From the IMG/VR virus record IMGVR_UViG_3300008267_000012: a stretch of DNA of 64,000 bases; one strand, given 5' to 3'. This stretch comes from a virus (lineage: Duplodnaviria; Caudoviricetes). Positions within the stretch are counted from its first letter, which is position 1, and each line of letters opens with the position of its first letter. This document shows, piece by piece, positions 19,035 to 60,046 of this stretch. The position numbers and the translations under genes are program-made. The notes under the pieces were generated by a model, which saw nothing but the letters and a program-made list of their open reading frames with translations, did not search any database and was not told the DNA's origin.

Positions 19035-19478
19035 TCAATAGTTTTTAACCAATTTTTCCTTCTTATCAAGCATTAATCTAGCACAATGCTTTTTATTTCT
19101 TGTATGTACTCTAAATTTTACATCATCACCATCTTTAAACAGCTCTTTCAATACATATTCCGCATTACAATTTGGATTAACTAACTTAATAGTTTTACAA
19201 GCATCTTCCATATTAATTTCAATTGATTTTGGGTTTTTACTATACTTATCTTTAAGTGTTAAAAATATTGATGTAGCAAACTCATCCATTCTCATTAATT
19301 TCTTATCAACACGCATTTTATCAAATGGGTTGTAGATAATTATCCATTTGTCATCTTGAATAGATAATTTACCCCACATTGGATTATAAGTTTGTCTTCC
19401 AAAATAATTATCCTCATTTTGGTCTTTTACTTTAGATGCTTGGTCTAATAATTTATCAAATTCACTATTATTTTCCAT
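19035..19478 (-). CDS. Hypothetical protein
   Basis: 147-aa ORF overlapping the helicase stop. Confidence 0.65.
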   Translation of the reverse strand: MENNSEFDKLLDQASKVKDQNEDNYFGRQTYNPMWGKLSIQDDKWIIIYNPFDKMRVDKKLMRMDEFATSIFLTLKDKYSKNPKSIEINMEDACKTIKLVNPNCNAEYVLKELFKDGDDVKFRVHTRNKKHCARLMLDKKEKLVKNY

Positions 19479-21249
19479 ATTTATTTTTATATGTTTTAAT
19501 CAATTCTTTTATAACATCAATTTTTACAGATTCATCAACATATTCTTTATTGTCAATGACTTTATCAATTACTTTTTTCTTTTCTTTTAGAATTGCATTG
19601 ACTCTTTCATCAATTGAATCACGAACAATTAGATTATATACCATTACATGACTTTCCTGACCAATCCTATGCGCTCTTGCATAACATTGCTCGTTTATTG
19701 ATGGTACATAATTCTGAGTAATCATAAATATATTTGATGCTCTTGTTAGTGTTAAACCTGCATTACCTGTTTGAACGGTCAGTAAAAGATTCATTACATC
19801 GTCATCATTCCTTTGAAATTCATCAATATATTGTTGTCTTGTTTCAACATCTACATCTCCTGTAAATAATCTTGAATTTTCAGGTGAATATTCATAAACC
19901 TTTTTTAAGGTTGATTTAAATTCATCAAATATGATGAGTTTTTGCCCTTCTTCATTATATGATTTAATTATATCAGATAAATAATTGATTTTCAATGATG
20001 AAGTGTATTGTCTTAACTTTTGTAAGACAGTTAAGAAATGCATTTTATCACTTAGATTATCTGATACTTCAAGTTTTGATAAATCCATTGTCTTTAATCC
20101 ACTTTCAATATCATCATATTCATCAAATTGTTCATCTGACATATCAATGAAGACTTCATTAATAAGAAGAGATGGTAAATCTTTTAAAACATCAGTTTTC
20201 TTTACTCTAAACATTACTCCATCCATTTTATTGAATAGAATATCTAAACTAATGTCTTTATGTGATTCGTAACCAAATCTACCTTTTATCATTCCGCAGA
20301 AATTCTCATAATAGAATCTTTTACTCTTAATTTGATAGGGAGAAAGCAAATGAAGTTGTGTATAGAGTTCAGTTACCCTTGATGGCATTGGAGTGCCTGT
20401 AAGTAGGAAAATGAATGGAAAATCAATGGTTTTAATTGTGTAAAGAAGATTCTTTGTTTGGTTTGCCTTTTCATTCTTAATATTTTGAGATTCATCCAAA
20501 ATAATTGCGTCAAAATTTGGAAAAGGTTTTTTAAATTTCCTTTCAAATGAATTTTTAAATACACCTGGTCTATCTCTAAAGAAATTATAATTTACAATAA
20601 TATATTTTGCATCCTTAATTTCACAATCATTTTTTTTATATCCAACTATATGAACTTTTTTATGTTTTGTGAATTTTTTAATTTCATTTTGATAATTGAA
20701 TTTAAGACTGTTGGGAACAACTACTAATACCTTTTTAATATCTTTTGACATTTCACAGGCAAGGATACTTGTGATTGATTTACCACAGCCTTGTTCAAAT
20801 CCAAGCATTGCCTTTTTTCTGAACAAAAGAAAATCAGCACCTATACATTGATAATTGAATGGATTGATTCCTTCTTCTAAGAATTTTTTATAATTCTTTA
20901 AATCAACTTCTCTATCTAATTTTTTTATTTTCTTAGAATGGTCATCTAATTTTTCTTCATCAGATTTATTTTTTTCTTTGTCTTTATTTTCTTCTAAGAG
21001 TTTATCTTTTACTTTGATAAAATCATTCCTATCCTCAAATGAATTAAATTTAAAGAATATATTTTTATCACCTTTATAGGATTTAATAATATCAAATAAA
21101 TCTAAACAATGAACTTCCCAAGAGTTATCTGATTTTTCAAACTTTGAGTGTTCATATTGTTTAATTCTTTGAATTAAATCAAGTAAATAAGGAAAAGATA
21201 GGGAGAAGAATCTTGACCTCCCTATCCTTTTTACTTTAATATTAATCAT
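19468..21249 (-). CDS. SNF2-family helicase (SMARCAL1/HARP-like N-terminus)
   Basis: Motif I FEQGCGKS, motif II LDESQ, motif III LTGTP, motif VI QCYARAHRIGQ. Confidence 0.9.
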   Translation of the reverse strand: MINIKVKRIGRSRFFSLSFPYLLDLIQRIKQYEHSKFEKSDNSWEVHCLDLFDIIKSYKGDKNIFFKFNSFEDRNDFIKVKDKLLEENKDKEKNKSDEEKLDDHSKKIKKLDREVDLKNYKKFLEEGINPFNYQCIGADFLLFRKKAMLGFEQGCGKSITSILACEMSKDIKKVLVVVPNSLKFNYQNEIKKFTKHKKVHIVGYKKNDCEIKDAKYIIVNYNFFRDRPGVFKNSFERKFKKPFPNFDAIILDESQNIKNEKANQTKNLLYTIKTIDFPFIFLLTGTPMPSRVTELYTQLHLLSPYQIKSKRFYYENFCGMIKGRFGYESHKDISLDILFNKMDGVMFRVKKTDVLKDLPSLLINEVFIDMSDEQFDEYDDIESGLKTMDLSKLEVSDNLSDKMHFLTVLQKLRQYTSSLKINYLSDIIKSYNEEGQKLIIFDEFKSTLKKVYEYSPENSRLFTGDVDVETRQQYIDEFQRNDDDVMNLLLTVQTGNAGLTLTRASNIFMITQNYVPSINEQCYARAHRIGQESHVMVYNLIVRDSIDERVNAILKEKKKVIDKVIDNKEYVDESVKIDVIKELIKTYKNKYGK

Positions 21250-44704: not shown

Positions 44705-47700
44705 TTATTTAAGTTTTCTAAAGCCGTATCTATCAGAGAAGTAATTATAGTTCTTTTTAATTTCAGGGAATGGTAAATCAATATCATACATTCTAAGTCT
44801 TTGTATCTTTCCATAGAATGAACCATCAAAATTCTCTTCAATAACAGATTTAATTCCTCTATTGTATAATATTTCAGTACTGATAGTATAAGAAGTTGTT
44901 CCTGTAAGGTCAACTACATCATATTCACGGAATGAAATATCATCAAAGTAAAAGTTATAGTAAGATGTTATTGCTGTTGAATTTTCAAACTTAATAATAG
45001 GTGTATAAGATGTATATGCATTTATTTCGCTTGGTGTTACAAAATCAATTGATAAATAAGTCCATGTATTTGCAGAACTAATTGTATTATAAGTTGTAGT
45101 TGTTAATACCTCAATTTCAGAATCTAATGGATTAGTAAAATCAAAATAAATACCCTTTTCTTCATTTGGTAAAAATCCATTATCATCATAAAAATAACCA
45201 CTTAATATATATCTCTTTTTAGGTTTTATTTCTAAAGGATTTTCAAATATTAATAAATTATTTGTTAATGAAGTAAATGTGGTTGCTGTTGATGATGTAA
45301 TAGAATCAGGTATTAAATTATACTCACTAAAAGTATAGTTATCAATAAAGAATTTATAACTTTCTGTTATTGCTGTAATATTACCTACTTTTATAACAGG
45401 AGTATAAATTGTAAATGATGATAATACTTCAGGTGTTGTAAACTCAACACTTAAATCAACCCAAGCATTTGATAAAACACTATCATTATATGTGATTGAT
45501 GTTAAGATAATATTTTCACCTGATAATGTAGGTTCAAAATCAAAATAAATATTCTTTGATTCTCCACTTAAATAACTATTATTATCGTAGAATTTAGTTG
45601 AAACTGTATATTTTTTAGCAGGATTAATATTTATATCTTCAAATTTAAAGATATTATCCGTTAAGGATGAATATGTTAAGCCTGTAACAATATCTTGTTC
45701 ATATAATTTAAAATCATCAAACTTAAATCCATAAATTGATGGGAAGCAATCACCAAAATCAACATTTACACCTAATGTATAAGAAGTTGCTCCTGTGATT
45801 ATTGATGGTGTTTTAATTTCTGTTCTAAGTGTATACCAAGTATTGAAAGAATCTGAATTTGTGTATGCTGTTTTTCCAAGAAGTTCATGTTCTGAATCTA
45901 AATTCAAGAAATCTATATCAACATACTTGTATGTACTTGTAAAACTAAAGAAATCATTAAATCTTGTTTCAAGAATATATACTTTACTTGGATTTATTGG
46001 TTTTTGGTCAGTAAAAGTAAAGATTGTATTAGATGGTGAATTAAATGTATTACCTGTAAGGTCGGTATTTCTTACATTTAAAATAAATGCAGATGGATTA
46101 CCAACTTCACTAAATGGTAGTGTTTCTAATGTTCCATCAACTAAATCAATTGTAATACCTGATGTAATTCCAACTGTATGTCCACTATCTTCAAATTCAC
46201 CAAAATTAGCATCATTTAATGTTAATGTGTTTGATGTATATTGAGTTATAACAAGTGGTGGTAATGCAAGTTTAAGTGAACTATTTCCTGAGAAATATTG
46301 CTCTGTTGATACTTCTAGTATTGAATTTATTGTTTCGCTTGATACATTTTCAGTTGAGGATTCAAATGTTTTACTATAGCCTGTATTATAAACATAACTA
46401 AATCCTGTTAATGAAAGCACAGGTAATAAATTATATTCTTCAGTATAAATATCATCAAAATAAAACTTATAACTTTGATTTATACCTGATGGATTATCAA
46501 CAAATACATATGGTGTATATGATGTGTTACCTGTTATTTGTGTTGGTGTATTAAATTCAATTTTTAAATCATTCCAAACACCTGAAGTTGTTGATGTTGT
46601 GTAAGTTAAGGATGAAACAAATATATGTTCAGAATCTAATGGTGGTAAGAATCCTATATAAACACCTTTTGTTTCTCCTGTATTGTAACTATTATCATCA
46701 AAAAATTTAGCACTAACAGCATATTTTTTATTAATTTCAGGTGTAAAACTTGATAATGTCAATAATGAATTTGTTATTGAACTAAATGTAAAAGATGTAA
46801 ATCCACTTAAAGGATAATTTGTAATTGTAAAATTATCAAAATAAAATTTATAATTTGAACTTATTCCACTCTTATTATATAATTTTGCAACAGGAGTATA
46901 TGTTGTAGAGCCTGTTAAAGCACTAGGAGTTATAAACTCCAATGATAAATCAACCCAAGTTTGAGAAGAAGTTGTAGTAGTATATGTTAAAGATGATATA
47001 ATTATATTCTCAGAGTCTAATCCGTTAAGAATTTCTAGTATTACACCCTTTTCTTCATTTGGTAAATAACTATTGTCATCATAAAATTGAGTATTTAGGG
47101 AATATTTTGTATCGCTTGTTATTGTAAACGAACTAAAATTAACTAAAATATCTGTTGTTGATGACAATGTAAATGAAGTATAAGTATCAATCGTTTCATA
47201 TGATAAATAATAGTTATCAAAGAAAAAATTATAACCTTGATTATTAATAGTTAAAGATGTAACAGTCTCACCGCTTGTTCCACCTGTAAAAATTAAAGTT
47301 GTTGATGATGGTTCAGCTAATTCATTTTCATAATCAATACTTGTTGAAAATTTATAAATACTATTACCAGTCATTATTGGTGGTGTTTTAAACACATATC
47401 TTAATTTTGTCCAAGTATTTGCTGATGTTGTAGATGTATATGTTTCAGCGGATAAAATAAGAATTTCAGGGTCTAATGTAGGAATCGTATCTAAATAAAT
47501 ACTTTTATTTGAACCTGTCCAAGTTTGTGCAATATTTTGTGTATATGCTGAATAATTAATTACATCTCCACTAGCATTTGTTCCTGTATAAGCAGTTACA
47601 AATACAGTTTGACCTGTAGCCGTATAGTCATATGTGTAACCTTCATAATAATAATATGCGTTTGGTAATAATGTAATATTATTTACAAAATAAAATAAGT

Positions 47701-50700
47701 TTTTATCAATACTAAAGAATGGAGCATAGCTATCTTGTTGTGGATATGGTGCAACTCTAAGACTTACTGAACCACTTAATACAGGATATACTTCATAAAA
47801 ATATGCTGCCGTATTATTTGTGTTAATTCCATTGGATAAAAATTCAAATGTACCACTATTACCATTTGTAATAACATTACCTGTGTAGACAGTAAGACCT
47901 GTAGTTACTGTGATACCTGAAGCATCACCAAATAATTTCAATGATGTTGAACTTGTAAAATATTGATTTGAAAATTGTTCTGTGCTTGATGTTAAAGTTG
48001 CTGCACTTATTTCTGTTGTAAATCCACTTATACTACCTTCAAAATCATATAATATTGTACCTGCTGAAACATATTCATATATTGTTTTAGTGGATGATGA
48101 TGAGGCAGATAAAATTAATGAACTCAATCCTGAAAAAGTTTGAGCAGTTGTTGATGTAATTACGACATCTAAGACATCTGTAGTTACACCGCTAATACTA
48201 GTTTCAAAATCAATTGTATATGAAGAGTTAAAAAAATATGTATAACTTGTTGCATAACCAGTTAAATAGGTTATTGATGTAATTGGGTCAAGAGGTTTTA
48301 ATTTTAAAGAATAATTACCTGAATGTGTAAGTGCTGTGCTTGAGTCTATTATAATATCAATAACATCACTTGTAATACCTGTTATATTATTTTCAAAAGT
48401 TCCATTATCACCATTTAAGAAATAATTTGTATTTCCTGATACATTGTATTGTTCAAATACAAAATCATCAAAAATAAATTTATAATCAATTGAAATACCT
48501 GTTGGATTTACAAATTTAATTACAGGTAAATAACTTGTATTTCCTGTTATTACGGATGGACTTAGAAAGTCTAATTGTAAATCAGTCCAAGTTTGACTTG
48601 GTGTTGTTGTCGTATATGTTAAAGAAGATATAACTATATTTTCAGAATCTAATCCACCTGAGAATGTTAAATAAACACCTTTAGTTTCTCCTGAATTATA
48701 ACTATTGTCATCGTAAAATTTACCTTTGTAAACGTATTTCCTATCAGGAATAATATTTACAGGATTAAATATCAATAAGTTATCACCTGTTGCGCTAAAT
48801 GTAAGTCCTGATGTTGAAATAACAGTTTCTAAAATGCTAGGTGAATATTCAATTACTGAGATTTCATCAAAATAAAATTTATAATCATTAACTAAATCAA
48901 ATATAAAACCAACTTCAATAGATGGTAGATAATTTGTAATACCTGTAATTGCTGATGGAGTTGTAAATTCTAATTTTAAATCAACCCATTTTCTTTTTTC
49001 AACAGTATTGTCATATGTTACTGCTGTTAATACTGTATTTTCAGGGTCTAATCCACCTTGAAAACTTAAAAATACTGATTTGTTATTACCTGTAAAACTA
49101 TTATCATCATAAAACTTAGCAGTATAAATATATCTAGAATTTGGATTAACTGTTATACCTGTTGTACCAAACATTGGTGTTGGTAAAGTATTAATTAATA
49201 ACAAATTATTAGTATCCGATGTGTATGATAATGTAGATGCGCTAGAATTACTTAATTTAAGTGTTGTTTCACATTGATATGGATGGTCAGCACTTATTTC
49301 AAGTAATCCATTATAGACTTCAGTAATTACATTTCCAGCTTGATAAATATCATTTATTAAATTTGTACTTGCACTAATGGTTGTTGAACTAACTACTGTG
49401 GTTGGATTTACATTCATTAATAAGACAGAATTATCTTGAGATAAAACCGTACTAAATAAATTATATAAAACATCGGTAGTTGCACCTGTTGTCGCAGCAC
49501 TAAGAGTATTTGTATCGCCATATTCTATTTGACTCGTACCACCTGTTATTTGCACATCGTATTCATCAAATGTAAAACTATCAAAATATAATTCATAAAA
49601 TCTTGTTCCTGCCGTTAAATCTTCAATTTTTACAGCAGGTGTATATGCCGTTAAACCTGTAATAACTTGTGGAGTTTGAAATTCAAAAATTATATTAGAC
49701 CAGGTATTTGGTAAGTCCTCAGTTGTTAAATATGTATGTGATGTGATTACGGTTATTTCTGAATCTAAATTTTCAATAAACCCAAGAGATATTTCATTTA
49801 TATAACAATTAAAGCTATCATGGTCATATAAATTAGCTGCATAAATATATCTTTTATTAGGATTTATTGAAATTGGTTGTGTGAATCTTAATAGATTATC
49901 TGTTATTGAACTAAATGTAGATGCTGTATAGTCATTATAAGTTAATAATAATGAACCACTTCCTGAATAAACTTGAGTTGAACTGCTTAATAATAAACTA
50001 TTTACTAAATCTGTACTTACATTATTAATTGCGGTTTCAAATGTACCAAAATCACCATCATTAAATAAAGTTTGACCTGTTACTAATGTGTAAGAGTAGC
50101 CACTTAAATTTTCAATACTGTAACCACTTTGATAAATAAAATCTCTACCTGTAATAATATTTTCAGTTACAGTTGCTGATGAGAATGCATCAACATATGA
50201 ATGTTTTAATCCCCAAGTACCCCCACCCCAATTTATTGTATATGGAATTCCAATTTGTCTATCAGCATCAATGCTTAATGGTCTTAACCAAAAGAATTCT
50301 TCTGTGTTATCAACTTCATGAAATAATTTACCATTTACATAAATCTTAAAGAATCCATCTCTTCTTGAAACACAATCAATTAAATTATCACCTTCAAAAT
50401 CTTTAATTTTTTTACAATATCTAAAGGTGGTAACAATATTTGTCCAACCTGTAGTTAATATTGGATTATCACTTTTATATTCAGTTACAAAGCCTGATGT
50501 TACTAAATATCTTAATGATATTGTTTTATCATCGTTGAATTTTAAACCTGCTGCATTATATTCAATATCAGGTAAATAACTATTTGTATCATATGTTATT
50601 TTTGATGTATCATCATTTGCCCCTGAAAATGCAATATTGAATTTATTTTCAGATTTAGCACCTAAATATAAAAAGAAACCATCTGTAAATGAATTAATAT

Positions 50701-51154
50701 TATCAAAAGTATCTTGGTCAATATATAACCAAGTATCTATTGTAAACCCATTTTCTGTTCTATATTTTCCAAGTTGAAAATATTTATCATGTAATTTAAA
50801 ATAAGTGCTTAAATAACCTCCTGATAATTCAAATGAATTACCTTCATTACCTGAATTTGTTGTTATTTGTGGGAATGTAGTATTTCCCTCACCATCGTTA
50901 TATCCTAATCTTTGAAAGATTAAATTTCTATCTCTTCTTGTAAAAGTTTTTGTTTGTGTTAAAGATGTTGCAAGACCAAAATCGTACATTGTTTGACCAT
51001 ATCCTGTTAAAGTAAGGTCGGACAAAATATAATTTTCCCAAAATGTTAAACTAGTTACAGAAAATCCTGCATTATTGTCAAACGACTTTATATTTGAAAT
51101 GTCAAAATCAAATATAATGTTATCTTTGGTAAGTCCTGTATTATTGAATATCAT
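44705..51154 (-). CDS. 2149-aa virion/baseplate protein: LamG-like domain interrupted by nine CBM4/9-like domains
   Basis: FTIDTW, IYVNGKL and NWGGG at the N-terminus; GSFYGKIQRLRMY at the C-terminus; nine FYDDNSY...LDSE...W..L..EF.TP...F.FD units. Confidence 0.75.
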   Translation of the reverse strand: MIFNNTGLTKDNIIFDFDISNIKSFDNNAGFSVTSLTFWENYILSDLTLTGYGQTMYDFGLATSLTQTKTFTRRDRNLIFQRLGYNDGEGNTTFPQITTNSGNEGNSFELSGGYLSTYFKLHDKYFQLGKYRTENGFTIDTWLYIDQDTFDNINSFTDGFFLYLGAKSENKFNIAFSGANDDTSKITYDTNSYLPDIEYNAAGLKFNDDKTISLRYLVTSGFVTEYKSDNPILTTGWTNIVTTFRYCKKIKDFEGDNLIDCVSRRDGFFKIYVNGKLFHEVDNTEEFFWLRPLSIDADRQIGIPYTINWGGGTWGLKHSYVDAFSSATVTENIITGRDFIYQSGYSIENLSGYSYTLVTGQTLFNDGDFGTFETAINNVSTDLVNSLLLSSSTQVYSGSGSLLLTYNDYTASTFSSITDNLLRFTQPISINPNKRYIYAANLYDHDSFNCYINEISLGFIENLDSEITVITSHTYLTTEDLPNTWSNIIFEFQTPQVITGLTAYTPAVKIEDLTAGTRFYELYFDSFTFDEYDVQITGGTSQIEYGDTNTLSAATTGATTDVLYNLFSTVLSQDNSVLLMNVNPTTVVSSTTISASTNLINDIYQAGNVITEVYNGLLEISADHPYQCETTLKLSNSSASTLSYTSDTNNLLLINTLPTPMFGTTGITVNPNSRYIYTAKFYDDNSFTGNNKSVFLSFQGGLDPENTVLTAVTYDNTVEKRKWVDLKLEFTTPSAITGITNYLPSIEVGFIFDLVNDYKFYFDEISVIEYSPSILETVISTSGLTFSATGDNLLIFNPVNIIPDRKYVYKGKFYDDNSYNSGETKGVYLTFSGGLDSENIVISSLTYTTTTPSQTWTDLQLDFLSPSVITGNTSYLPVIKFVNPTGISIDYKFIFDDFVFEQYNVSGNTNYFLNGDNGTFENNITGITSDVIDIIIDSSTALTHSGNYSLKLKPLDPITSITYLTGYATSYTYFFNSSYTIDFETSISGVTTDVLDVVITSTTAQTFSGLSSLILSASSSSTKTIYEYVSAGTILYDFEGSISGFTTEISAATLTSSTEQFSNQYFTSSTSLKLFGDASGITVTTGLTVYTGNVITNGNSGTFEFLSNGINTNNTAAYFYEVYPVLSGSVSLRVAPYPQQDSYAPFFSIDKNLFYFVNNITLLPNAYYYYEGYTYDYTATGQTVFVTAYTGTNASGDVINYSAYTQNIAQTWTGSNKSIYLDTIPTLDPEILILSAETYTSTTSANTWTKLRYVFKTPPIMTGNSIYKFSTSIDYENELAEPSSTTLIFTGGTSGETVTSLTINNQGYNFFFDNYYLSYETIDTYTSFTLSSTTDILVNFSSFTITSDTKYSLNTQFYDDNSYLPNEEKGVILEILNGLDSENIIISSLTYTTTTSSQTWVDLSLEFITPSALTGSTTYTPVAKLYNKSGISSNYKFYFDNFTITNYPLSGFTSFTFSSITNSLLTLSSFTPEINKKYAVSAKFFDDNSYNTGETKGVYIGFLPPLDSEHIFVSSLTYTTSTTSGVWNDLKIEFNTPTQITGNTSYTPYVFVDNPSGINQSYKFYFDDIYTEEYNLLPVLSLTGFSYVYNTGYSKTFESSTENVSSETINSILEVSTEQYFSGNSSLKLALPPLVITQYTSNTLTLNDANFGEFEDSGHTVGITSGITIDLVDGTLETLPFSEVGNPSAFILNVRNTDLTGNTFNSPSNTIFTFTDQKPINPSKVYILETRFNDFFSFTSTYKYVDIDFLNLDSEHELLGKTAYTNSDSFNTWYTLRTEIKTPSIITGATSYTLGVNVDFGDCFPSIYGFKFDDFKLYEQDIVTGLTYSSLTDNIFKFEDININPAKKYTVSTKFYDNNSYLSGESKNIYFDFEPTLSGENIILTSITYNDSVLSNAWVDLSVEFTTPEVLSSFTIYTPVIKVGNITAITESYKFFIDNYTFSEYNLIPDSITSSTATTFTSLTNNLLIFENPLEIKPKKRYILSGYFYDDNGFLPNEEKGIYFDFTNPLDSEIEVLTTTTYNTISSANTWTYLSIDFVTPSEINAYTSYTPIIKFENSTAITSYYNFYFDDISFREYDVVDLTGTTSYTISTEILYNRGIKSVIEENFDGSFYGKIQRLRMYDIDLPFPEIKKNYNYFSDRYGFRKLK

Positions 51155-51207: not shown

Positions 51208-53778
51208 TTAATTTTGTAATTCTATAAAAGAATTTCCATTCTCATCTTTATCAACCATAATAAGGTAATCAGGATTGATTATATCGCCATATGCATGTTC
51301 AATAATTAAAATTTTATCAATATCTTGTTTAACTTTATTCATAAGATTTATAAAGTTAATTGCGTTTCTTTCAGAGAGTTTTCCAAATAGTTCATCAAGA
51401 AGAAGAATATTTGGTCTTGACCTATTATTCATAAATCTTAATGCAAGTCTAAGACAAATACAAGCAAATACTCTTTCCATTCCTGAACCTGAAATAACAT
51501 TTTGAATAATTTCAGGAGTGTCTTTCTTTGACATTTGAAAAAAGAGTTCACTATCAAAGAAAACATTAAAGTCAATATCTTCTGTATATCCTTGAAGATA
51601 CATATTTACTTTTGGAATTAATTTCTTTAATAATGTACTTGGAATGCCTTCTCTGTGAATGCAGTTTTGATATTCTTCTCTGATTAATTCTTGTCTTTGC
51701 TGTTCTAAATACTTTGTAATTGTATCTTTATAGTTTTTAATTTCATTTTCAGCAAATTCAATCTTATATTTAAAATCATTTACTTCTTTTTTCAATGATT
51801 CTTTATCATTTTTAAATTCATTGACTTTTGATTTATATGTATCAATTTTTGATTGAATTTTATTATTCTCTTGAATATAAACTATATTAATATCATATCT
51901 TTTTAGAATATCATTTTTTTGAAAGATTTTTAAGTCAATATTTTCAATATGCATTGGAATATTATCATATTCCTGTTTGAATTTATTTCTTTTTTCAATC
52001 TCTTTAATAATTAATTCAATCTTTGTAATCTTTTCTTTTACCTTAGTGATTGCTACACTTTCTTTTTTAATCTCATCCTCAAAACCTTTTATTAATGACC
52101 TTTTACTTTCAGTCATTAATTCTTTATCTTTAATTTCTTCTTTATATTTATCAATATTTTTATTGATTGCTTTTAAATCTAGTTCATATTTCTTTTTATA
52201 TGACTCTTTTTTAATCTCACCTTTGAATTTTTCAATATTAGATTTTAGTTTATCAACTTTTACTTTGATTGATTCAATTGCATCCTCATCTTTTAAACGA
52301 TTACAACTAGGACAAACTTTACTATCTTCTAATGAGGAAATTTCCCTTTCAATTAAATCAATTTGTCTTTCTAAACCAAGTCTATCATTATCAATTTGAG
52401 AATCAACTTTTGTTATTGCAAGATTTTCTTTATGGATATATCCATTTATTACTGCAATATCATTTGTAATGGTATTAATTTCTTTATTTAAGTCTTTTAT
52501 TTGGTCATTCTTAGAAATTAACCAACCATTGAATGAATTTGATTTTTCCTTTAATGAATTATAAAGTTCTTCATCTAAAACAAACTTATTAAGTTCCTCA
52601 ATTTGTTTTAAAAGGTCTTTTTGTGACCTTTTCTTTTCTTCTTTATCATTAATAAGTTTATTAATCTCATCTTTAATTTGATTAATATTTAGATTCGTTA
52701 ATTTGGAATCAATTGGTTTTAATGTCTTAATTGTATTCTCAACATGAAGTTCACCATTTGAAATCCTTTCATTTAGAGTATTAATTTTATCTTCCCTATC
52801 TTCTATTTGAGTTTTATAATCCTCAATATAAACTTTTGCATCATCAATAAGTTGATTATACCTATCAACAGATATATTTAAAAGACTTTCTTTTTTATAT
52901 TCATTTTTCTTATAGGCTTTGAATACTTCAAGTTTCTTTTCAAATATATCAAGACCAGTATCTCTAAGAATTGAATCTAAGAATTTAGCATGGTCGGTTG
53001 TAAGAATATCATTTAAAGTATCAGCATTAATTAAGGATTTTGTGATAAATTCATCAAAATCCCCAATTGAATGTTCAATTAACTTTTGAGTATTAGTTTT
53101 ATCCTGTTCTGAAAGATTATTTTCATCAATTATCTCACCATTTGAGTCTAATTTATTGAAATAGGTCTTTGTTGAGCATGAGGTAATCTCTGTATGTGTT
53201 TTATCCCATTTTCTTTCAGTTCTTCTTCTAATGGCATAATCTTCACCATTGATTTCAACGATTAACTGAACTTCTGAATAATCTTTTTTGTTATTGTTGT
53301 TGATAAATTTATTATCTCTGTTCTTCTCTTTTTTGAGAGTATCAAAGGTAGTACCATAAAGACCATATGTAATAGAGTTTAAAATGTTTGAGTTATGAAC
53401 TGCAATGTTATTGGCATAATATTCACCAATACCTTCAACTTGAATATCTACTAAGTCAATAGTGGTTTGTGGGCATGTTGAAATTCTAAAAATATTTTCA
53501 ATTCCATCTTTAGTTTTGACTTTAATGAAAGACCATTCATTTTTAATTTCATCAAATGATTTAAAAAGACCTAAATCTGTTCTAATAAGATGGTCTTTTG
53601 AAACGGATAATCTTTTTCCTTTTTCCGTTTCTAATGTCCAATATTGGGAATCTTTTGAAGTGACATCATAGGCAAGAATTTTTGAATACCCACATGGGGT
53701 TTCAACCTCAATGTTTAATTCAAGAAGTAAGTCTTTTAATATTCTAAGATTTTCAATCTTTATCTGTTTCTCTGTCAT
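51208..53778 (-). CDS. sbcC: Split-intein C-fragment fused to the Rad50/SbcC (gp46-like) C-extein
   Basis: IntC ends YYANNIAVHN|SNILNSITYGLYG; coiled coil, CPSC hook, ISGSGMER signature, LLLDE Walker B, IIEH; ATG 53778 preferred over TTG 53802. Confidence 0.92.
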   Translation of the reverse strand: MTEKQIKIENLRILKDLLLELNIEVETPCGYSKILAYDVTSKDSQYWTLETEKGKRLSVSKDHLIRTDLGLFKSFDEIKNEWSFIKVKTKDGIENIFRISTCPQTTIDLVDIQVEGIGEYYANNIAVHNSNILNSITYGLYGTTFDTLKKEKNRDNKFINNNNKKDYSEVQLIVEINGEDYAIRRRTERKWDKTHTEITSCSTKTYFNKLDSNGEIIDENNLSEQDKTNTQKLIEHSIGDFDEFITKSLINADTLNDILTTDHAKFLDSILRDTGLDIFEKKLEVFKAYKKNEYKKESLLNISVDRYNQLIDDAKVYIEDYKTQIEDREDKINTLNERISNGELHVENTIKTLKPIDSKLTNLNINQIKDEINKLINDKEEKKRSQKDLLKQIEELNKFVLDEELYNSLKEKSNSFNGWLISKNDQIKDLNKEINTITNDIAVINGYIHKENLAITKVDSQIDNDRLGLERQIDLIEREISSLEDSKVCPSCNRLKDEDAIESIKVKVDKLKSNIEKFKGEIKKESYKKKYELDLKAINKNIDKYKEEIKDKELMTESKRSLIKGFEDEIKKESVAITKVKEKITKIELIIKEIEKRNKFKQEYDNIPMHIENIDLKIFQKNDILKRYDINIVYIQENNKIQSKIDTYKSKVNEFKNDKESLKKEVNDFKYKIEFAENEIKNYKDTITKYLEQQRQELIREEYQNCIHREGIPSTLLKKLIPKVNMYLQGYTEDIDFNVFFDSELFFQMSKKDTPEIIQNVISGSGMERVFACICLRLALRFMNNRSRPNILLLDELFGKLSERNAINFINLMNKVKQDIDKILIIEHAYGDIINPDYLIMVDKDENGNSFIELQN
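53392..53778 (-). mobile_element. Intein C-fragment (~129 aa, blocks B, F and G, no endonuclease)
   Basis: VETPCG; SVSKDHLI (block B); DLVDIQV (block F); AVHN/S (block G). Confidence 0.9.
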
Positions 53779-54328
53779 TTTCAAGTAATGGAAAAATTTC
53801 AATAATATTATTTACCCTATTGTTATGATTCTCATACTTCTTTTCAGGGTCAAATAAAATAATTTTTGTATTATCAAAAGATAATTCTGATAGTTTAGGA
53901 TTTGCAGTTAGTATATAATCAAAATCATCATCAATGTAGTCTACAAATCTATTGTAGAATCTAATTTCATCAAAATAAAATCCTGCTGAAAAGTTTGATA
54001 TATAGAAAGCAGTTAAGTTTCTAAATTTATGTCCTTCTCTTGATATCATTACTATCTTATACCCATTTTCGGATAGTTCAGGATAAATTTGATTTAACTG
54101 TGCAATCAATTCTTTTGATGGTAATGTTGATTTAGCAAACAATTCATAGGAATATTGATACAAGAATTCTTCTAACTCATTACCTTCAAAATTAAATGAA
54201 AGTAATGGATTGAATGGGTCAATTGGATAACCTACTGACCTATCAGCAAACTCAATTTGATAGTATTGTTGAAATTTTTTGATAAAATCCCTTAAAATTC
54301 CGTTTACTTCTATTGCAAAAGTTTTCAT
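53753..54328 (-). CDS. HAD-like 5'(3')-nucleotidase homologue with a non-canonical motif I
   Basis: AIEVNGILRDF in place of DxDGVLxDF. Confidence 0.55.
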   Translation of the reverse strand: MKTFAIEVNGILRDFIKKFQQYYQIEFADRSVGYPIDPFNPLLSFNFEGNELEEFLYQYSYELFAKSTLPSKELIAQLNQIYPELSENGYKIVMISREGHKFRNLTAFYISNFSAGFYFDEIRFYNRFVDYIDDDFDYILTANPKLSELSFDNTKIILFDPEKKYENHNNRVNNIIEIFPLLENDRETDKD

Positions 54329-54332
54329 ATGA

Positions 54333-54340
54333 CAAATATA
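54333..54340 (-). promoter_or_regulatory. TAnnTTTG -7 element driving the HAD + IntC-Rad50 unit
   Basis: TATATTTG 4 nt upstream of ATG 54328. Confidence 0.55.
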
Positions 54341-54380
54341 AAAAAAATTATCGTATTATATTATCAAATTCAATAAAAAA

Positions 54381-55454
54381 ATGGATAAATTAGAAAAATT
54401 AAACCAATTATTTAGTGATATTGAAAATAAAAATTTCAATATTTACTTGTATGTTCCTTCTATTCCTGAGAATGTATACTCAATGGCGGTTGAAGAAATA
54501 TATAACATTTGTTATCTCTTAAAAAGGAATAACTATAATGCTTTTCTTATTACAGGTGAAGATGAAAAAGAGCCTGAATATAAGATTCCTTTATATCTAT
54601 CTGAAGAACTAAGGTCTTTACCGCATCTCTCACCAAAAAAAGACAATATCAGCGTTTCTCCAAGCGATGTAATGATTGTACCTGAGTTTTTTGTAAATGT
54701 AATGCATCAAATTTCAGAAGCAAAGATTCAATGTGAAAAGATTGTTCTTTGTCAATCACAAACATATATGCTTGATTCTCTTCCACCAAATCATACTTGG
54801 GCGGCATGGGGATTCAATACAATTATTACAACTTCTGAACAGTTAAAGGAATTTATTCAAAGAAATTCAAGAGTAAATTATAATATTGAATCATATACTA
54901 TTGGTATTCCTGATTATTTTAAACCTAAAAAAATCAAAAAACCAATTATTATGTATTTTTCAAGAGAGGATAGTGTAATTAAAAGATTATCAAAGATTTT
55001 CTTTATGAAATATCCTGAACTTTCTTGGGTATTGTTTGAAAGAGTTCAAGGTGGTGAACCATTTATCACAAGAGAAAAACTTGCTGAAAAAATGGGTGAA
55101 ATTCCTGTTCTTCTTTGGCTTGATAAGGATGCAGGTTTTGGTACACTTCCACTTGAAGCAATGAAAAGTGGTGCTGTAGTTGTAGGTATGATTCCTGAAC
55201 TTGAAAAGGATTATACTAAAGCTGATGATACAGCAGTTTGGTCAAATTCACTTGAAGTGCTTGCTGAACAACTTGGTGTTATTATTAAAGAATGGATGGT
55301 TGATAATATCCCAACTAATGTTTATGAAAATATGCAAAAAGTTTCAAATCAGTTTACAACTGAAAATCATGAAAAAACACTAATTCAAGCTTTTTCAAAC
55401 ATCGTTGAAAATAGAAAAAATTTAATTAATCAAGCAATAGAAAATGAAAAATAA
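54381..55454 (+). CDS. GT-B (GT4-like) glycosyltransferase
   Basis: DVMIVPE...GFGTLPLEAMKSGAVVVG. Confidence 0.8.
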   Translation: MDKLEKLNQLFSDIENKNFNIYLYVPSIPENVYSMAVEEIYNICYLLKRNNYNAFLITGEDEKEPEYKIPLYLSEELRSLPHLSPKKDNISVSPSDVMIVPEFFVNVMHQISEAKIQCEKIVLCQSQTYMLDSLPPNHTWAAWGFNTIITTSEQLKEFIQRNSRVNYNIESYTIGIPDYFKPKKIKKPIIMYFSREDSVIKRLSKIFFMKYPELSWVLFERVQGGEPFITREKLAEKMGEIPVLLWLDKDAGFGTLPLEAMKSGAVVVGMIPELEKDYTKADDTAVWSNSLEVLAEQLGVIIKEWMVDNIPTNVYENMQKVSNQFTTENHEKTLIQAFSNIVENRKNLINQAIENEK

Positions 55455-56250
55455 TACCTTAGAAAATTTAACAGTAATTATTCCACTTAATAAGTTGGAG
55501 AATGAATTGGATACTCAATTGTTTAATGTAGCGATTGAATCTATCTTTACACAAAAGAGTGATATCGTTCCAAGCGAAGTAATTATTATTACAAACAAAG
55601 AAACTAAAGAACAAATTAAAACAGATAGACCTGTTAGTTTTGTTTTGAATGATGAAACTTCTAATAATTATCAAAGTCAAATTAACAAAGCTGTAAAAGA
55701 AGTTAAAACTTCATTTTTTATGATTTTGGATGGTGATGATGAATTTACACCAATTTATTTTGAAAATGTATCAGACCATATGGAAGAAATGTCAAATGTT
55801 GATATGTTCCTACCAATTGTTGCAGATGTTACATTAGATAAAAAGATTCATCGCTATATTAATGAAATCAATTGGGCAAAAGATGTAACAAATGATAAAC
55901 ATGGTTATCTTACAATGGAAACATTGATGAATTACAATCTTGTTTCAATTAATGGTGCTGTAATTAGAAAAGAAAAATTTGAAGAAGCAGGTGGTTTGAA
56001 AGAATCAATGAAGCTTACTTTTGTTTATGAATTCTTAATGAGATTTACTAACATTGATGGTATTACATATACTATACCTAAGATTGGTTATCTAAGAAAA
56101 ATAAACAGAGAAAATTGTTATTTAGCTGAAATGTCAAAAATGGATGGTGATGAAGTTAATTTTTGGTGGGGTTTGGCTAAAAAAGAATATGTTTGGCCTC
56201 ATGATAGAAATAAAACCTATGTAAAGAAAGAAGAAACACCTGTTATTTAA
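55444..56250 (+). CDS. GT2-family glycosyltransferase
   Basis: LTVIIP...SEVIII...FFMILDGDD. Confidence 0.82.
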   Translation: MKNNTLENLTVIIPLNKLENELDTQLFNVAIESIFTQKSDIVPSEVIIITNKETKEQIKTDRPVSFVLNDETSNNYQSQINKAVKEVKTSFFMILDGDDEFTPIYFENVSDHMEEMSNVDMFLPIVADVTLDKKIHRYINEINWAKDVTNDKHGYLTMETLMNYNLVSINGAVIRKEKFEEAGGLKESMKLTFVYEFLMRFTNIDGITYTIPKIGYLRKINRENCYLAEMSKMDGDEVNFWWGLAKKEYVWPHDRNKTYVKKEETPVI

Positions 56251-56252
56251 TA

Positions 56253-57047
56253 ATGACTGAAAATAAAAAGGGTAGACGTGGTAGAAAAGCTAAACCAGGG
56301 TCTATAAAAGAGTATTTTACTGACGATACAGAAAAGGCTATTATTAAATATAATAGCCCTGACTGTTCGTTAGAAGAAAAAAATGAGATTTATGAGAAAC
56401 AAATTCATAAGGCTCTAAAAAAACTTGCTTATTTTACCGCTAAATCATACTTCCTTTATTTTTCAAAGCGTTATACGATAGAAGATATGGAAAATGACCT
56501 TCTGATTTTTGCCTTCAATAATCTTCATATGTTTAATCCTGAAAAGATTAATAAACATGGTGTAAAATCAAAGGCATTTTCCTATTTCTCTACAATTTGT
56601 AAAAACGAAGCAAAACACATATCTGAAAGAAACTTTAATCAAGATAAATCTAGTGATGATGTTGTAGAAAATCTTGATTTATTTGAAAGAGATTTATCAT
56701 TATCATATTACATTGATGAAAACTTAGATGATTATACCGATACTAACTATATTAAAATAGTTTTTTTGGGTATGTGTAATGAAATTAAAAACAAAATAGA
56801 AACAGATAAATTATTAAAAGAAATTGATGTTAATATTGGTTATTCATTAATCTCAATAATTGAAAACTTTAAGTATATTAATGAACCAACTGAATCAAAA
56901 ATGAGTTTATTTTTTATCAATAATAGAGTTATTGATATGATTTGTGAAATCACAGAAAATAGATATAAAAAACAAGACATTAAAAAATCACTTAAAACAT
57001 TTAAATGTGTCTATACAAAACTCAAAGATGAATATATGAATAATTAA
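56253..57047 (+). CDS. T4 gp55-like phage late sigma factor
   Basis: YFTDDTEKAIIKY...LHMFNPEK...KAFSYFSTICKNE parallels the gp55 LHNFD...NPHAYIT region. Confidence 0.65.
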   Translation: MTENKKGRRGRKAKPGSIKEYFTDDTEKAIIKYNSPDCSLEEKNEIYEKQIHKALKKLAYFTAKSYFLYFSKRYTIEDMENDLLIFAFNNLHMFNPEKINKHGVKSKAFSYFSTICKNEAKHISERNFNQDKSSDDVVENLDLFERDLSLSYYIDENLDDYTDTNYIKIVFLGMCNEIKNKIETDKLLKEIDVNIGYSLISIIENFKYINEPTESKMSLFFINNRVIDMICEITENRYKKQDIKKSLKTFKCVYTKLKDEYMNN

Positions 57048-57071
57048 CTATTTATCTATAAATAATAGATA

Positions 57072-57374
57072 ATGGATGAGTTTAATATTTATGATGGGTT
57101 TATAGACGACAATAGATTCTCAACACTACCATACTTTAAAATAGATGAGAGTGATACTGATATTTATATTGAATGGAATGTTGGTAATCGTTTAGATAGA
57201 TTAGCATATACCTATTATCAGAACGCAGCATTGGGTAAATTCATATTAATGGCAAATCCCCAATACCTATCCGAAGGGGATTTAGATATTGGGGATATTT
57301 TAAGAATACCCATGCCAAAAGAAGATATGTTTGCCATACTAAGAAATAGAATTGAACTCTCAAGGAAGTTCTAA
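57072..57374 (+). CDS. Baseplate wedge gp53-like / LysM-like tail protein
   Basis: RLDRLAYTYY...ILMANP...GDILRIP. Confidence 0.75.
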   Translation: MDEFNIYDGFIDDNRFSTLPYFKIDESDTDIYIEWNVGNRLDRLAYTYYQNAALGKFILMANPQYLSEGDLDIGDILRIPMPKEDMFAILRNRIELSRKF

Positions 57375-57611
57375 TCTAACTCCAAGATATCTGTTCTTGA
57401 TAAATTCTATAAATGCTTTTCCTGTTGAGTCTGCATCCTGTAGTTTAAAGTAATCTTCAGGTTTAACATTATCATATTGATATCTTAGATTACCCTTTAC
57501 GAAAGTTACATATAAGGTATTGTTAGATGTATCATAAGTAGATGATACAATGTTTGATGAATCATACGTTGCTTCAACGATTCCATCTTCTTGTTTAACA
57601 CTAGTTGTCAT
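57360..57611 (-). CDS. KTSC domain protein
   Basis: SSNIVSSTYD...LYVTF...YQYDNV...DSTGKAFIEFIK. Confidence 0.88.
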   Translation of the reverse strand: MTTSVKQEDGIVEATYDSSNIVSSTYDTSNNTLYVTFVKGNLRYQYDNVKPEDYFKLQDADSTGKAFIEFIKNRYLGVRLELP

Positions 57612-58708
57612 AAATTTAGTAATTCTTCGTGTAGTTCTGATATATTATCAAAAGTTTTATTGTTTTCTATATTAAATTTTGTTTTTAATTCTTCAATTAA
57701 GTTTTCACTTGGTCTTTGAACCTCCATTAAAACATCGGTTCTACCCTTTCTTTTAATAGCATCATCAATTTTATCAAGTTCATTAGTTGTTATAATAAAT
57801 ATAATATCATTTGGTGTATATATACCATCTAATACGTTTAAAATACAAGAAAGTGAAATTTTAACATCAGAATCTTTCTTTTCTTCCTTTCTGTTGATAT
57901 CATCTAATAAACAATCAATATCTTCAAATAATACAATTGATTTCTTTGGTCTATCAGAAATCAATGCAATAAGATTTGCATCTGTCATATCTTTAGATAA
58001 GTTAATTGCCATTATATCTCTTTTTGTATAATTAGATATACCTAATGATAATGATGATTTTCCTGTTCCTGGAGGACCATAAAAAAGATATGTTCTTTTA
58101 TATCTAATTCCATACTTATCATATTTTTCTTTTGATGAATTAAACCTATCTAAATCCTTTTTAAGGAACTCTGATACATTATTGTCAAGATAAATATTGT
58201 CAAATGTCTTATTTATAACCTTACCTGCACATCTAATTTCACCATTAAAGTTATAAAAATACTTTATATATTTATTACCATAGTTATTATCAACATAATT
58301 CATTAATTCTTTCAAAATAGACTTATTCCTACAAAAAATCATAAACATATGTTTATTATTCTTATATGGTGTCATACTATTTTGAATATTTTCAGCATTT
58401 TTCAACACTAAGAACCTATTTCCTTTAAATTTAAAATAAATAAATCCTGAATTATAAAACATGTTAACATCAAAGTTATCTGAACTTATAAAGTTATCAT
58501 ATAATGTTCTATAATAAAGATTTTTAATAGACTCTTGTTTTTCAGATAAAACAAAGTTTTGAAATGAATAAAAGAAAAAAGAACTCTCTTCAATCTTCAT
58601 TGAACAAATGAGTCTATCTCTTAATGTTGTTAAAACAAAAAGAAAGAATTGTTTGAAGTAAACTAATGTACCTCCAAGAATGAGTGTTATTAATACTGTT
58701 TTATCCAT
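57608..58708 (-). CDS. BCS1-like AAA ATPase with N-terminal transmembrane segment
   Basis: GIRYKRTYLFYGPPGTGKSS; FEDIDC; SLSCILNVLDG; IFIITTN; RKGRTD. Confidence 0.82.
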   Translation of the reverse strand: MDKTVLITLILGGTLVYFKQFFLFVLTTLRDRLICSMKIEESSFFFYSFQNFVLSEKQESIKNLYYRTLYDNFISSDNFDVNMFYNSGFIYFKFKGNRFLVLKNAENIQNSMTPYKNNKHMFMIFCRNKSILKELMNYVDNNYGNKYIKYFYNFNGEIRCAGKVINKTFDNIYLDNNVSEFLKKDLDRFNSSKEKYDKYGIRYKRTYLFYGPPGTGKSSLSLGISNYTKRDIMAINLSKDMTDANLIALISDRPKKSIVLFEDIDCLLDDINRKEEKKDSDVKISLSCILNVLDGIYTPNDIIFIITTNELDKIDDAIKRKGRTDVLMEVQRPSENLIEELKTKFNIENNKTFDNISELHEELLNL

Positions 58709-60046
58709 TTATTTTAAAAATTCAGGTAAATATCCAAGTTTATTTATTATTTCTTCTTCGTTAAATCTAATATTGATTTTTGTTTCGGGATGAACGCATT
58801 TACCAACCTGATTTTCTCCGTAGATTTGAATAATTCCATTCTTATCTGTTAAATCAAGTTCATATCTTTCACCATGCGATTTAAAGTTATCAAGTACAAT
58901 CTTTTTAACTTTCCAATCATAGAATTGATTCTCCACATCTTTTTCAATCAATGATGTTATTTCATTATCAAGTGATAAAACATCCTTTATAAAGTCTTCT
59001 TGATGGTTTTTAGCTTTCAAAAAGTTTATAAACTCCTGTCTTACACTATCATCATTGTTTAAATCAATTGTTTCATCAAATTCTTTAATCTTTAAAGATT
59101 TATTTAGAATCTTAGATTTATCAAATTTAATAGTGGCGAATTCGCCATATTTAGATTCTAAATGTTTCTTAATCTTTTGTTTATTTTCAACATTAAATGT
59201 TGAATATTGGTCCATCCAATGAATCTTAATATGATTATGTTTTCCAACATTTTTAAGTTCAATATCTAGATTTTGATAATCATAATCTTCATTGATATAG
59301 ATATTAAAGTATTTATAATCTGAGATTATTTCTTTCTTTTCAAAAGTTTTTGCTTCAATATCCCATAAAAGATAACCATGAAAAGCATTATCACCTTCAC
59401 CGTAATTGGTACAATATAATGACGATGGGTAAGCAAAAAACTCTCTTCCATTTTTTTGATATGATTGTTGGAGATGTATATCTCCTGCCATTACAATATC
59501 ACCTTTAAAATCAGCAAGAGAAACAATATTACTATCGGTATGGTATTGTCCATTTTGTAGATAACATCCATTAATTGGGTCATGGAAAAGGTCAATATAA
59601 TACTTATTATTATTGCGCTTTTCTTCATTGAATTCAAGCCAAGGGGATTTTCTATCAGGGTGATACCAAACAGCGAAAACAATATTATCAAGTTCAAAAA
59701 AACCTGTTGAATCATAGTAGTGTATATTAGGATTGTTAATAATCTCAACAAGCATCTTGATTGATGACATTCTGTTGAGATTTGATTTCATTATATCGTG
59801 ATTACCATCAATAATAACCACAGGTGCTATCATAGCACAAGAAGTCAAAAAATCTCCTGCAAGGACATTGATTTCATTAAAAGGTTTTACATAGTTGTGG
59901 AATAGGTCACCTACAATTACAATCAAATCAGGTCTGTCCTTGATTAGGGATTTAATTGTAAGACTTGAGATATGTTTTTGCTCTGCTAATCTGTCCAAAT
60001 TATTTTGGAAGTGGATATCAGCAAGATGAGCTATTTTCTGAATCAT
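58709..60046 (-). CDS. sbcD: Mre11/SbcD nuclease fused to the Rad50 N-terminal lobe, ending in a split-intein N-fragment
   Basis: HLADIH, VGDLFH, GNHD, DLFHD, GDIH metallophosphoesterase motifs, then KIVLDNFKSH...IYGENQVGK|CVHPETKI. Confidence 0.92.
   Translation of the reverse strand: MIQKIAHLADIHFQNNLDRLAEQKHISSLTIKSLIKDRPDLIVIVGDLFHNYVKPFNEINVLAGDFLTSCAMIAPVVIIDGNHDIMKSNLNRMSSIKMLVEIINNPNIHYYDSTGFFELDNIVFAVWYHPDRKSPWLEFNEEKRNNNKYYIDLFHDPINGCYLQNGQYHTDSNIVSLADFKGDIVMAGDIHLQQSYQKNGREFFAYPSSLYCTNYGEGDNAFHGYLLWDIEAKTFEKKEIISDYKYFNIYINEDYDYQNLDIELKNVGKHNHIKIHWMDQYSTFNVENKQKIKKHLESKYGEFATIKFDKSKILNKSLKIKEFDETIDLNNDDSVRQEFINFLKAKNHQEDFIKDVLSLDNEITSLIEKDVENQFYDWKVKKIVLDNFKSHGERYELDLTDKNGIIQIYGENQVGKCVHPETKINIRFNEEEIINKLGYLPEFLK
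58712..58798 (-). mobile_element. Intein N-fragment (29 aa)
   Basis: CVHPETKINIRFNEEEIINKLGYLPEFLK directly after Walker A GK, then stop. Confidence 0.88.

Follow-up and report, generated by a model that had tools for sequence, protein, structure and literature searches.

An atypically split intein in the Walker A loop of a phage Mre11-Rad50 fusion, with the two gene halves 4.9 kb apart

We analysed a stretch of 64,000 nt (hereafter the window) from the IMG/VR virus record IMGVR_UViG_3300008267_000012 (Duplodnaviria; Caudoviricetes), in which a single-chain Mre11-Rad50 (SbcDC-like) enzyme is encoded by two separate open reading frames (ORFs), each of which carries one part of an intein. The element is almost certainly a class-1, endonuclease-free mini-intein in the Walker A loop of this enzyme. 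It is very likely a functional trans-splicing intein that joins the two halves, the chemistry of which we infer. The evidence computed here comprises the anatomy of the locus, homology, fold, conservation and predicted docking of the two intein pieces, N-terminal (IntN) and C-terminal (IntC).

In ORF1, Pfam recognises an Mre11 nuclease (Metallophos, residues 4-191, E 2.6e-12), beyond which an AAA_23/SMC_N-type Rad50 N-terminus extends up to GENQVGK at residue 416. This motif is followed by CVHPETKINIRFNEEEIINKLGYLPEFLK and a stop codon, and Cys417 corresponds to Cys1 of the intein. The original prediction had described this 445-aa ORF as Mre11 plus the start of Rad50 ending in GENQVGK, with a short tail before the stop, and both the coordinates and the sequences are as described. 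It had also placed a Hint fragment at the head of ORF2, in front of the rest of Rad50. This part stands, whereas the start of ORF2 had to be moved: the ORF as listed (51208-53802) opens with a TTG, but the ATG at 53778 is the start in all relatives and gives a protein of 856 aa. Residues 1-129 of ORF2 close with AVHN, with SNILNSITYGLYG next; residue 130 is a serine (Ser+1), followed by NILNSITYGLYG. The 29/129-aa split with a Cys1/Ser+1 pair and a separation of about 4.9 kb, as originally proposed, was confirmed, the distance from the ORF1 stop to the ORF2 start being 4930 nt. Once the exteins are joined (416 + 727 = 1143 aa), the Walker A motif GENQVGK-S is reconstituted, with Ser+1 in the Walker A Ser/Thr position. 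The C-extein matches Pfam SbcC_Walker_B (E 9e-5), and the features of a Rad50/SbcC ABC ATPase were all found: Walker A (after joining), a CxxC zinc hook, the signature and Walker B (Table 1).

The host protein has contiguous counterparts elsewhere. The 735-kb phage LR756501.1 carries a contiguous 1202-aa Mre11-Rad50 fusion, and in a tblastn search ORF1 residues 1-418 (37% identity) and ORF2 residues 130-854 matched abutting coordinates of this phage; the match of ORF2 to the Rad50 part starts exactly at residue 130. In a global alignment the joined exteins (1143 aa) are 35.4% identical to this fusion. The splice point lies inside an ungapped block of 117 residues (378-494), where GENQVGK and SNILNS, on either side of the junction, are aligned with GENQQGK-TTIIDA. 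The ungapped junction bears out the earlier claim that joining the exteins restores a P-loop in an 1143-aa protein. A second intein-free allele is P0054 (1243 aa). Tenacibaculum phage PTm1 (ORF-075, 1318 aa), Microcystis phage Mel-JY01 (1066 aa) and LR756501.1 have the domain order and P-loop context seen here. In contrast to the split gene of the window, the jumbo-phage fusions are contiguous genes, and LR756501.1 and P0054 at least are intein-free. Because the isolated jumbo phages PTm1 and Mel-JY01 carry the same fusion, annotated as such, a single-chain Mre11-Rad50 is nothing unusual in phages of this kind.

Pfam gave no intein match with the whole ORFs and only a sub-threshold one with IntC alone, so that profile and structure methods were needed to identify the intein. 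Compared by phmmer, IntC alone matched the gp41-1 intein (6qaz) with E 2.4e-5 over residues 25-129, ending at His-Asn. A profile built from 23 IntC sequences matched twelve solved inteins, including gp41-1 (4e-11), NrdJ-1 (2e-7) and VidaL (1e-4). With a profile of 20 contiguous Rad50 inteins we obtained exactly two matches in the 91-kb record to which the window belongs, and these are complementary: profile positions 1-40 match IntN (E 6.4e-6) over a stretch that includes the stop codon, and positions 35-163 match the ORF2 head, i.e. IntC (E 2.8e-29). The AlphaFold2 model of IntC had a mean predicted local distance difference test score (pLDDT) of 88.8. When this model was searched with Foldseek, 43 matches were found at E<=1e-3, essentially all of them inteins, bacterial intein-like (BIL) domains or hedgehog (Hint) domains; they include Ssp DnaB (template modelling score, TM, 0.77), VidaL (TM 0.73) and gp41-1. 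The predicted structure thus contains the Hint (horseshoe) fold. The Hint identity first suggested from sequence motifs is in this way supported by likeness to solved inteins in both sequence and fold, and the suggested profile comparison by the complementary matches of the two fragments. As in class 1 inteins, Cys1 follows the N-extein, block B has the form (T/S)xxH, block F contains Asp and His-Asn is followed by Ser+1; the host site is conserved, and the intein-free homologue LR756501.1, and likewise P0054, is gapless across the junction.

Conservation follows the same lines. Among the 23 IntC sequences, which share 40-93% identity, there is no variation in block B at S60 and H63, in block F at D108 and D111, or at H128, N129 and S130 (Ser+1). 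Every IntN found has Cys1, and 20 contiguous homologues share it without exception. The pairwise ratio of nonsynonymous to synonymous substitution rates (dN/dS) was 0.14 for IntN and 0.20 for IntC, compared to 0.04-0.05 for the exteins. On these alignments the pattern of selection is that expected of a functional intein, which is constrained, though less than its host.

The position of the break can be read from homologues in which the intein is contiguous. The original prediction had pointed to contiguous or intein-free alleles among relatives as a comparison to make, and both were found (intein-free in LR756501.1 and P0054, contiguous in P0059). In P0059, P0077 and P0078, IntN sequence, a short loop and IntC sequence lie in one chain at the same site. 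The chain of P0059 runs from GK into CVDENTEIEIEFDEKEIIEKFGFLPNELK, then a five-residue loop and MKKIITIKQL..., and ends with ...SHN followed by SS. The 29-aa IntN is homologous to the P0059 intein over its whole length (14/29 residues identical), and IntC of the window starts where the P0059 loop ends. The model of P0059 (pLDDT 94.3), whose best solved match is VidaL (TM 0.87, E 1.5e-11), consists in order of the first beta hairpin, a helical segment (residues 19-34), a loop (35-42) and a short strand with a helix; the helical segment is the equivalent of the IntN tail in the window, and the strand and helix are the equivalent of the beginning of IntC. A phmmer comparison of the N-terminal 62 aa of a contiguous homologue with the PDB gave chance matches only. 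In the model, the break falls in the loop between the IntN equivalent and IntC, which is the S1 position in the usual nomenclature. VidaL and PolB16 are also split at S1 (PMC13014065). As in other atypically split inteins, IntN is shorter than ~40 aa and has its own stop, and IntC includes block B and has its own conserved ATG.

The 29 residues of IntN comprise a 12-aa beta-hairpin core (CVHPETKINIRF) and a 17-aa helical tail. In L010, the most divergent relative within the clade, IntN is 17 aa long and has no helical tail; therefore the essential core is probably the 12-aa hairpin. A close relative (L005:11228-11347) has an IntN of 32 aa, with a tail that is three residues longer (…DFFKING) before the stop, indicating that the end of the tail tolerates a change in length.

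The split layout was found in at least seven independent IMG/VR contigs from different samples, with gaps of 4.0-5.8 kb. In L003 and L007-L010 the cassette within the gap is syntenic, except for genes that were gained or lost. The split arrangement is present in more than 50 protein clusters and is kept down to 53% Mre11 identity (L010). The stretch is present in freshwater and lake metagenome runs of other studies, and contigs assembled from two such studies span the junctions: X2 spans the ORF2 start with 0 differences and X4, from a related strain, spans the ORF1 stop. Thus, the split layout is due neither to chance nor to an assembly artefact, the latter having been named with the original prediction as something that would refute it.

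A hidden Markov model search of 1.84 billion representatives yielded 811 relatives. They include mini-inteins of 135-178 aa that are contiguous and occupy the same Rad50 P-loop site, both in stand-alone Rad50 and in Mre11-Rad50 fusions. Within the best 150 of the 811 representatives, ~77 begin with IntC, to which a Rad50-like extein is attached, and ~24 are contiguous; these best matches comprise at least 77 clusters at 50% identity. The element of the window is one of a large metagenomic family, the Rad50 P-loop inteins, which occur in three forms: contiguous, fractured (the parts being separated by a nuclease-like gene) and dislocated, as in the window.

Five loci outside the clade of the window were examined for their layout. 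The full fractured layout was observed in four of them (L015, L016, L017/L018 and L020): an N-half ORF, an ORF of 340-436 aa and IntC-Rad50 follow each other in this order, and the ORFs abut or overlap. L019, the fifth, is incomplete, and a middle ORF of this kind lies directly upstream of its IntC. Two forms of the N-half occur, a 69-aa Rad50N-IntN and Mre11-Rad50N-IntN. All the middle ORFs share homology (E 1e-12 to 1e-26) and contain repeated 'EYWIxKGYSxEEA' motifs and a conserved C-terminal 'YPN..YRYDF....YIEY' domain, for which there are weak matches of the PD-(D/E)xK type and hints of resolvase and T7 endonuclease I; none has a Pfam match. They probably represent an uncatalogued homing-endonuclease family. 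We considered the Vsr-like family of Dassa 2009 for them and, with only weak PD-(D/E)xK-type hints, left them as putative nucleases. A tblastn search with these ORFs detected no homologue in the whole window. We also rejected the idea that one of the intervening genes in the window is a decayed homing endonuclease, as there was no similarity to the nuclease-like ORFs of the relatives.

The layout of L015-L020, in this family with the split at an atypical site, corresponds to stage II in the model of gene breaking put forward by Dassa et al. 2009 (PMC2677866). The feature that defines the fractured genes of that study is present in L015, L016, L017 and L020 and is absent from the window, where order and orientation are kept but seven unrelated genes, and no endonuclease gene or nuclease homologue, lie between the halves. 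The window fits a later stage of the same model, at which the endonuclease has been lost and the halves are dislocated. In the order of events that we propose, a free-standing nuclease gene would have broken a contiguous Rad50 P-loop mini-intein to give a fractured gene, the nuclease gene would later have been lost in this phage clade, and unrelated genes would have come between the halves.

In L017 the Mre11 part is itself broken (L017:16473-17264, minus, and L017:2638-3396, plus). Its N-terminal piece contains a LAGLIDADG-type intein (weak Pfam Intein_splicing), and its last recognisable motif before the stop is GDIHLQQ. About 9 kb separate this piece from the other ORF, which is on the opposite strand, starts in mid-Mre11 and carries Rad50N-IntN. 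Dassa et al. 2009 (PMC2677866) mention a similar arrangement, a fractured SbcD that has no intein. The contig with the fractured Rad50 of L016 also encodes a 983-aa terminase large subunit (TerL) with a LAGLIDADG_3 domain (L016:6479-9430), probably a TerL with a full-length intein.

In the mechanism we propose for the window, Mre11-Rad50N-IntN (445 aa) and IntC-Rad50C (856 aa) would be translated separately, and the 29-aa IntN would dock into the nearly complete Hint fold of IntC. A thioester would then form at Cys1 and be attacked by Ser+1, the terminal Asn would cyclise, and the exteins would be ligated into the 1143-aa protein with an intact GENQVGK-S P-loop. With Ser+1 serving as the Walker A Ser/Thr and the Hint domain expected to lie in the ATP site, neither half would be an active ATPase before splicing.

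The co-folding suggested with the original prediction favours an interaction. For IntC (1-140) with ORF1 (405-445) the complex score was 0.84 in three runs while the best of three controls scored 0.00; a score of 0.84 was reached by 51 of 78 solved complexes and by 2 of 108 mismatched pairs, although here it may partly reflect the predictor's memory of solved split inteins and speaks for likeness, not for activity. The predicted interface takes in ORF1 residues 417-444 (IntN). The prediction supports binding of the fragments to each other, and conservation is the stronger argument for function. Together with the caution on the complex score, several further points weigh against trans-splicing by this intein. 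Pfam Intein_splicing matches IntC alone with only E 0.022, which is below the cut-off. Block B has Ser in place of the usual Thr, a substitution that is conservative and invariant. Weak matches, to phrog_9019 with E 3e-4 and to T7 endonuclease I with E 0.84, underlie the assignment of the middle ORFs of the relatives as nucleases. The stretch was absent from all RNA runs searched, and we infer both splicing itself and the spliced product.

If the intein pieces had ceased to splice, they might act only as docking domains that hold the enzyme together non-covalently, like the fragmented NrdA of phage Aeh1; as a precedent, interaction domains derived from mobile elements reportedly assemble a fractured enzyme (PMC3045599). 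Such a role would agree with the predicted binding of the fragments. We nevertheless regard it as unlikely, since the clade shows no variation in any of the residues that serve the chemistry alone (Cys1, the His of block B, the Asp of block F, the terminal His-Asn and Ser+1), and since a break between the P-loop Lys and Ser would leave an unexcised Hint domain of 158 aa in the nucleotide site. A decaying remnant that was broken by rearrangement, in a phage that relies on host SbcCD or RecBCD, is very improbable. The seven unrelated genes between the halves, some of them on the opposite strand, could be expected in this case, but both halves are intact ORFs in the more than 50 clusters, purifying selection on the exteins is strong (dN/dS 0.04-0.05) with the intein pieces also constrained, and the arrangement has persisted to the 53% Mre11 identity of L010.

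The halves share strand and order, and for this reason we also considered that they become joined in the DNA, if the 4.9-kb segment were excised or inverted, or in the RNA by splicing, along with an artefactual separation in the assembly. We found no support for these, and they are the least probable of the explanations. With respect to excision or inversion, no direct or inverted repeats flank the 4.9-kb segment beyond AT-rich chance matches. Moreover, a stop of its own ends ORF1 and a conserved ATG of its own opens ORF2, independent contigs preserve the cassette, contigs of other studies bridge both junctions, and no joined form occurs among the contigs examined. Trans-splicing of the two halves by the intein is our preferred reading.

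As a kind, the element is already known: it is an atypically split intein of the VidaL type. Only four natural atypical split inteins have been characterised, namely AceL-TerL, GOS-TerL, VidaL and PolB16 (PMC13014065). The description of such inteins as rare, made when the locus was first noticed, thus holds for the characterised ones but not for the present family, which has dozens of metagenomic split members. VidaL (PDB 6vgv; Neugebauer 2017 and Burton 2020, as cited in PMC13014065) has an IntN of 16 aa. Like the window intein it is a Cys-dependent, endonuclease-free mini-intein with a natural split after the first beta hairpin (S1); it gives a profile match with E 4e-13, and its IntC starts with the same 'x-I/V-x-I/V-x-x-L' helix and ends in ...VSHN followed by S. 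However, the sequence identity is only ~20%, and the window intein, which sits in the Rad50 P-loop, differs in its longer IntN, whose 29 aa include an additional helical tail of 17 aa (in L010 the whole IntN measures 17 aa). AceL-TerL and GOS-TerL (IntN of 25 and 37 aa; Cat-TerL consensus, PDB 6dsl) share with the window a short IntN, a long IntC with block B, a phage or metagenomic origin and an ATPase P-loop protein as the host, and the Cat IntC gives a profile match with E 5e-11. In contrast to the window intein, their host is a terminase and they use Cys1/Cys+1 or Ser1/Cys+1 instead of Cys1/Ser+1; they are split after helix alpha1, at the S2 site (PMC13014065). The closest solved relatives in sequence, gp41-1 and NrdJ-1 (E 4e-11 and 2e-7), also come from phage DNA-metabolism hosts but are split at the canonical endonuclease-insertion site, with a long IntN and a short IntC.

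Several features are new: the host and insertion site, an S1 split together with a Cys1/Ser+1 pair, an IntN with a helical tail, a layout with dislocated halves, and the family's size. The hosts covered by Dassa et al. 2009 (PMC2677866) do not include Rad50 (0 occurrences). We found no Rad50, gp46 or SbcC intein in the literature searched, which does not include the key VidaL papers, so that an earlier description is possible. Going further, one may speculate, with considerable doubt, that the family is a large undescribed reservoir of S1-type split inteins (IntN of 17-32 aa, Cys1/Ser+1), that in the clade of the window the conserved 17-aa helical tail of IntN and the N-terminal helix of IntC form an added capture element, and that splicing serves as an AND gate that times the assembly of the recombination nuclease in the course of infection. 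Such timing would be possible because the halves lie in separate transcription units.

A short IntN that can be chemically synthesised is prized for protein semisynthesis and live-cell labelling. The locus adds a well-supported fifth type, with a new host protein and a Cys1/Ser+1 pair; L010 provides a natural 17-aa IntN variant, and the dozens of diverged relatives could supply orthogonal pairs. In addition, a single host site displays every stage of the proposed route of gene breaking: intein-free, contiguous, fractured with a nuclease gene and dislocated without it. If splicing does take place, the main double-strand-break nuclease of this phage needs protein trans-splicing to obtain an intact ATP site.

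Table 1. Features of the split Mre11-Rad50 locus in the window and middle ORFs of fractured relatives
Feature	Position	Strand	Description
ORF1	58709-60046	minus	445 aa; Mre11, start of Rad50 and 29-aa tail
N-extein	58799-60046	minus	416 aa; Mre11-type nuclease fused to the Rad50 N-terminus, last residue is the Walker A lysine (GENQVGK)
IntN	58712-58798	minus	29 aa; Cys1 at 58796-58798; TAA stop (58709-58711) directly after
Intervening segment	53753-58708	both	seven genes between the halves
IntC	53392-53778	minus	129 aa from the ATG at 53778; blocks B (SKDH), F (DLVDIQVEG) and G (VHN)
C-extein	51208-53391	minus	727 aa plus stop; Ser+1 at 53389-53391, then the remaining Rad50
Zinc hook CPSC	52303-52314	minus	in ORF2 (residue 489), coiled coil
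Walker B ILLLDE	51391-51408	minus	in ORF2 (residue 791)
Signature SGME			ORF2 residue 765
Middle ORF, L015	L015:1810-2841		
Middle ORF, L016	L016:744-1946		
Middle ORF, L017	L017:3452-4762		
Middle ORF, L019	L019:165-674		
Middle ORF, L020	L020:1448-2470		

The phage belongs to a poorly charted freshwater lineage; its genome has ~27% GC, and the estimated completeness of the record is 65%. PHROG gave no match for most of the large ORFs at 1370-43851 of the window (those of 1149, 835, 2491, 1479 and 1384 aa, among others); the matches in this region are a helicase (19468-21249, phrog_62) and one family of unknown function. Immediately downstream of ORF2, a highly repetitive protein of 2149 aa is encoded on the minus strand (44705-51154).

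Pfam and PHROG scans of the intervening segment identified a BCS1-like AAA ATPase, a KTSC-domain protein and a 191-aa ORF on the minus strand, and a baseplate-wedge-like ORF of 100 aa, a 264-aa ORF, a GT2 glycosyltransferase and a 357-aa ORF on the plus strand. There was no homing endonuclease among the seven genes in these scans, and three of the seven had no family match. IntC starts within the last part of the 191-aa gene upstream of it, with an overlap of 26 nt. The BCS1-like ATPase (57608-58708, minus) has a hydrophobic N-terminus and lies directly downstream of ORF1. It is missing in the relatives L009 and L010 and is therefore an accessory gene of the intervening cassette.

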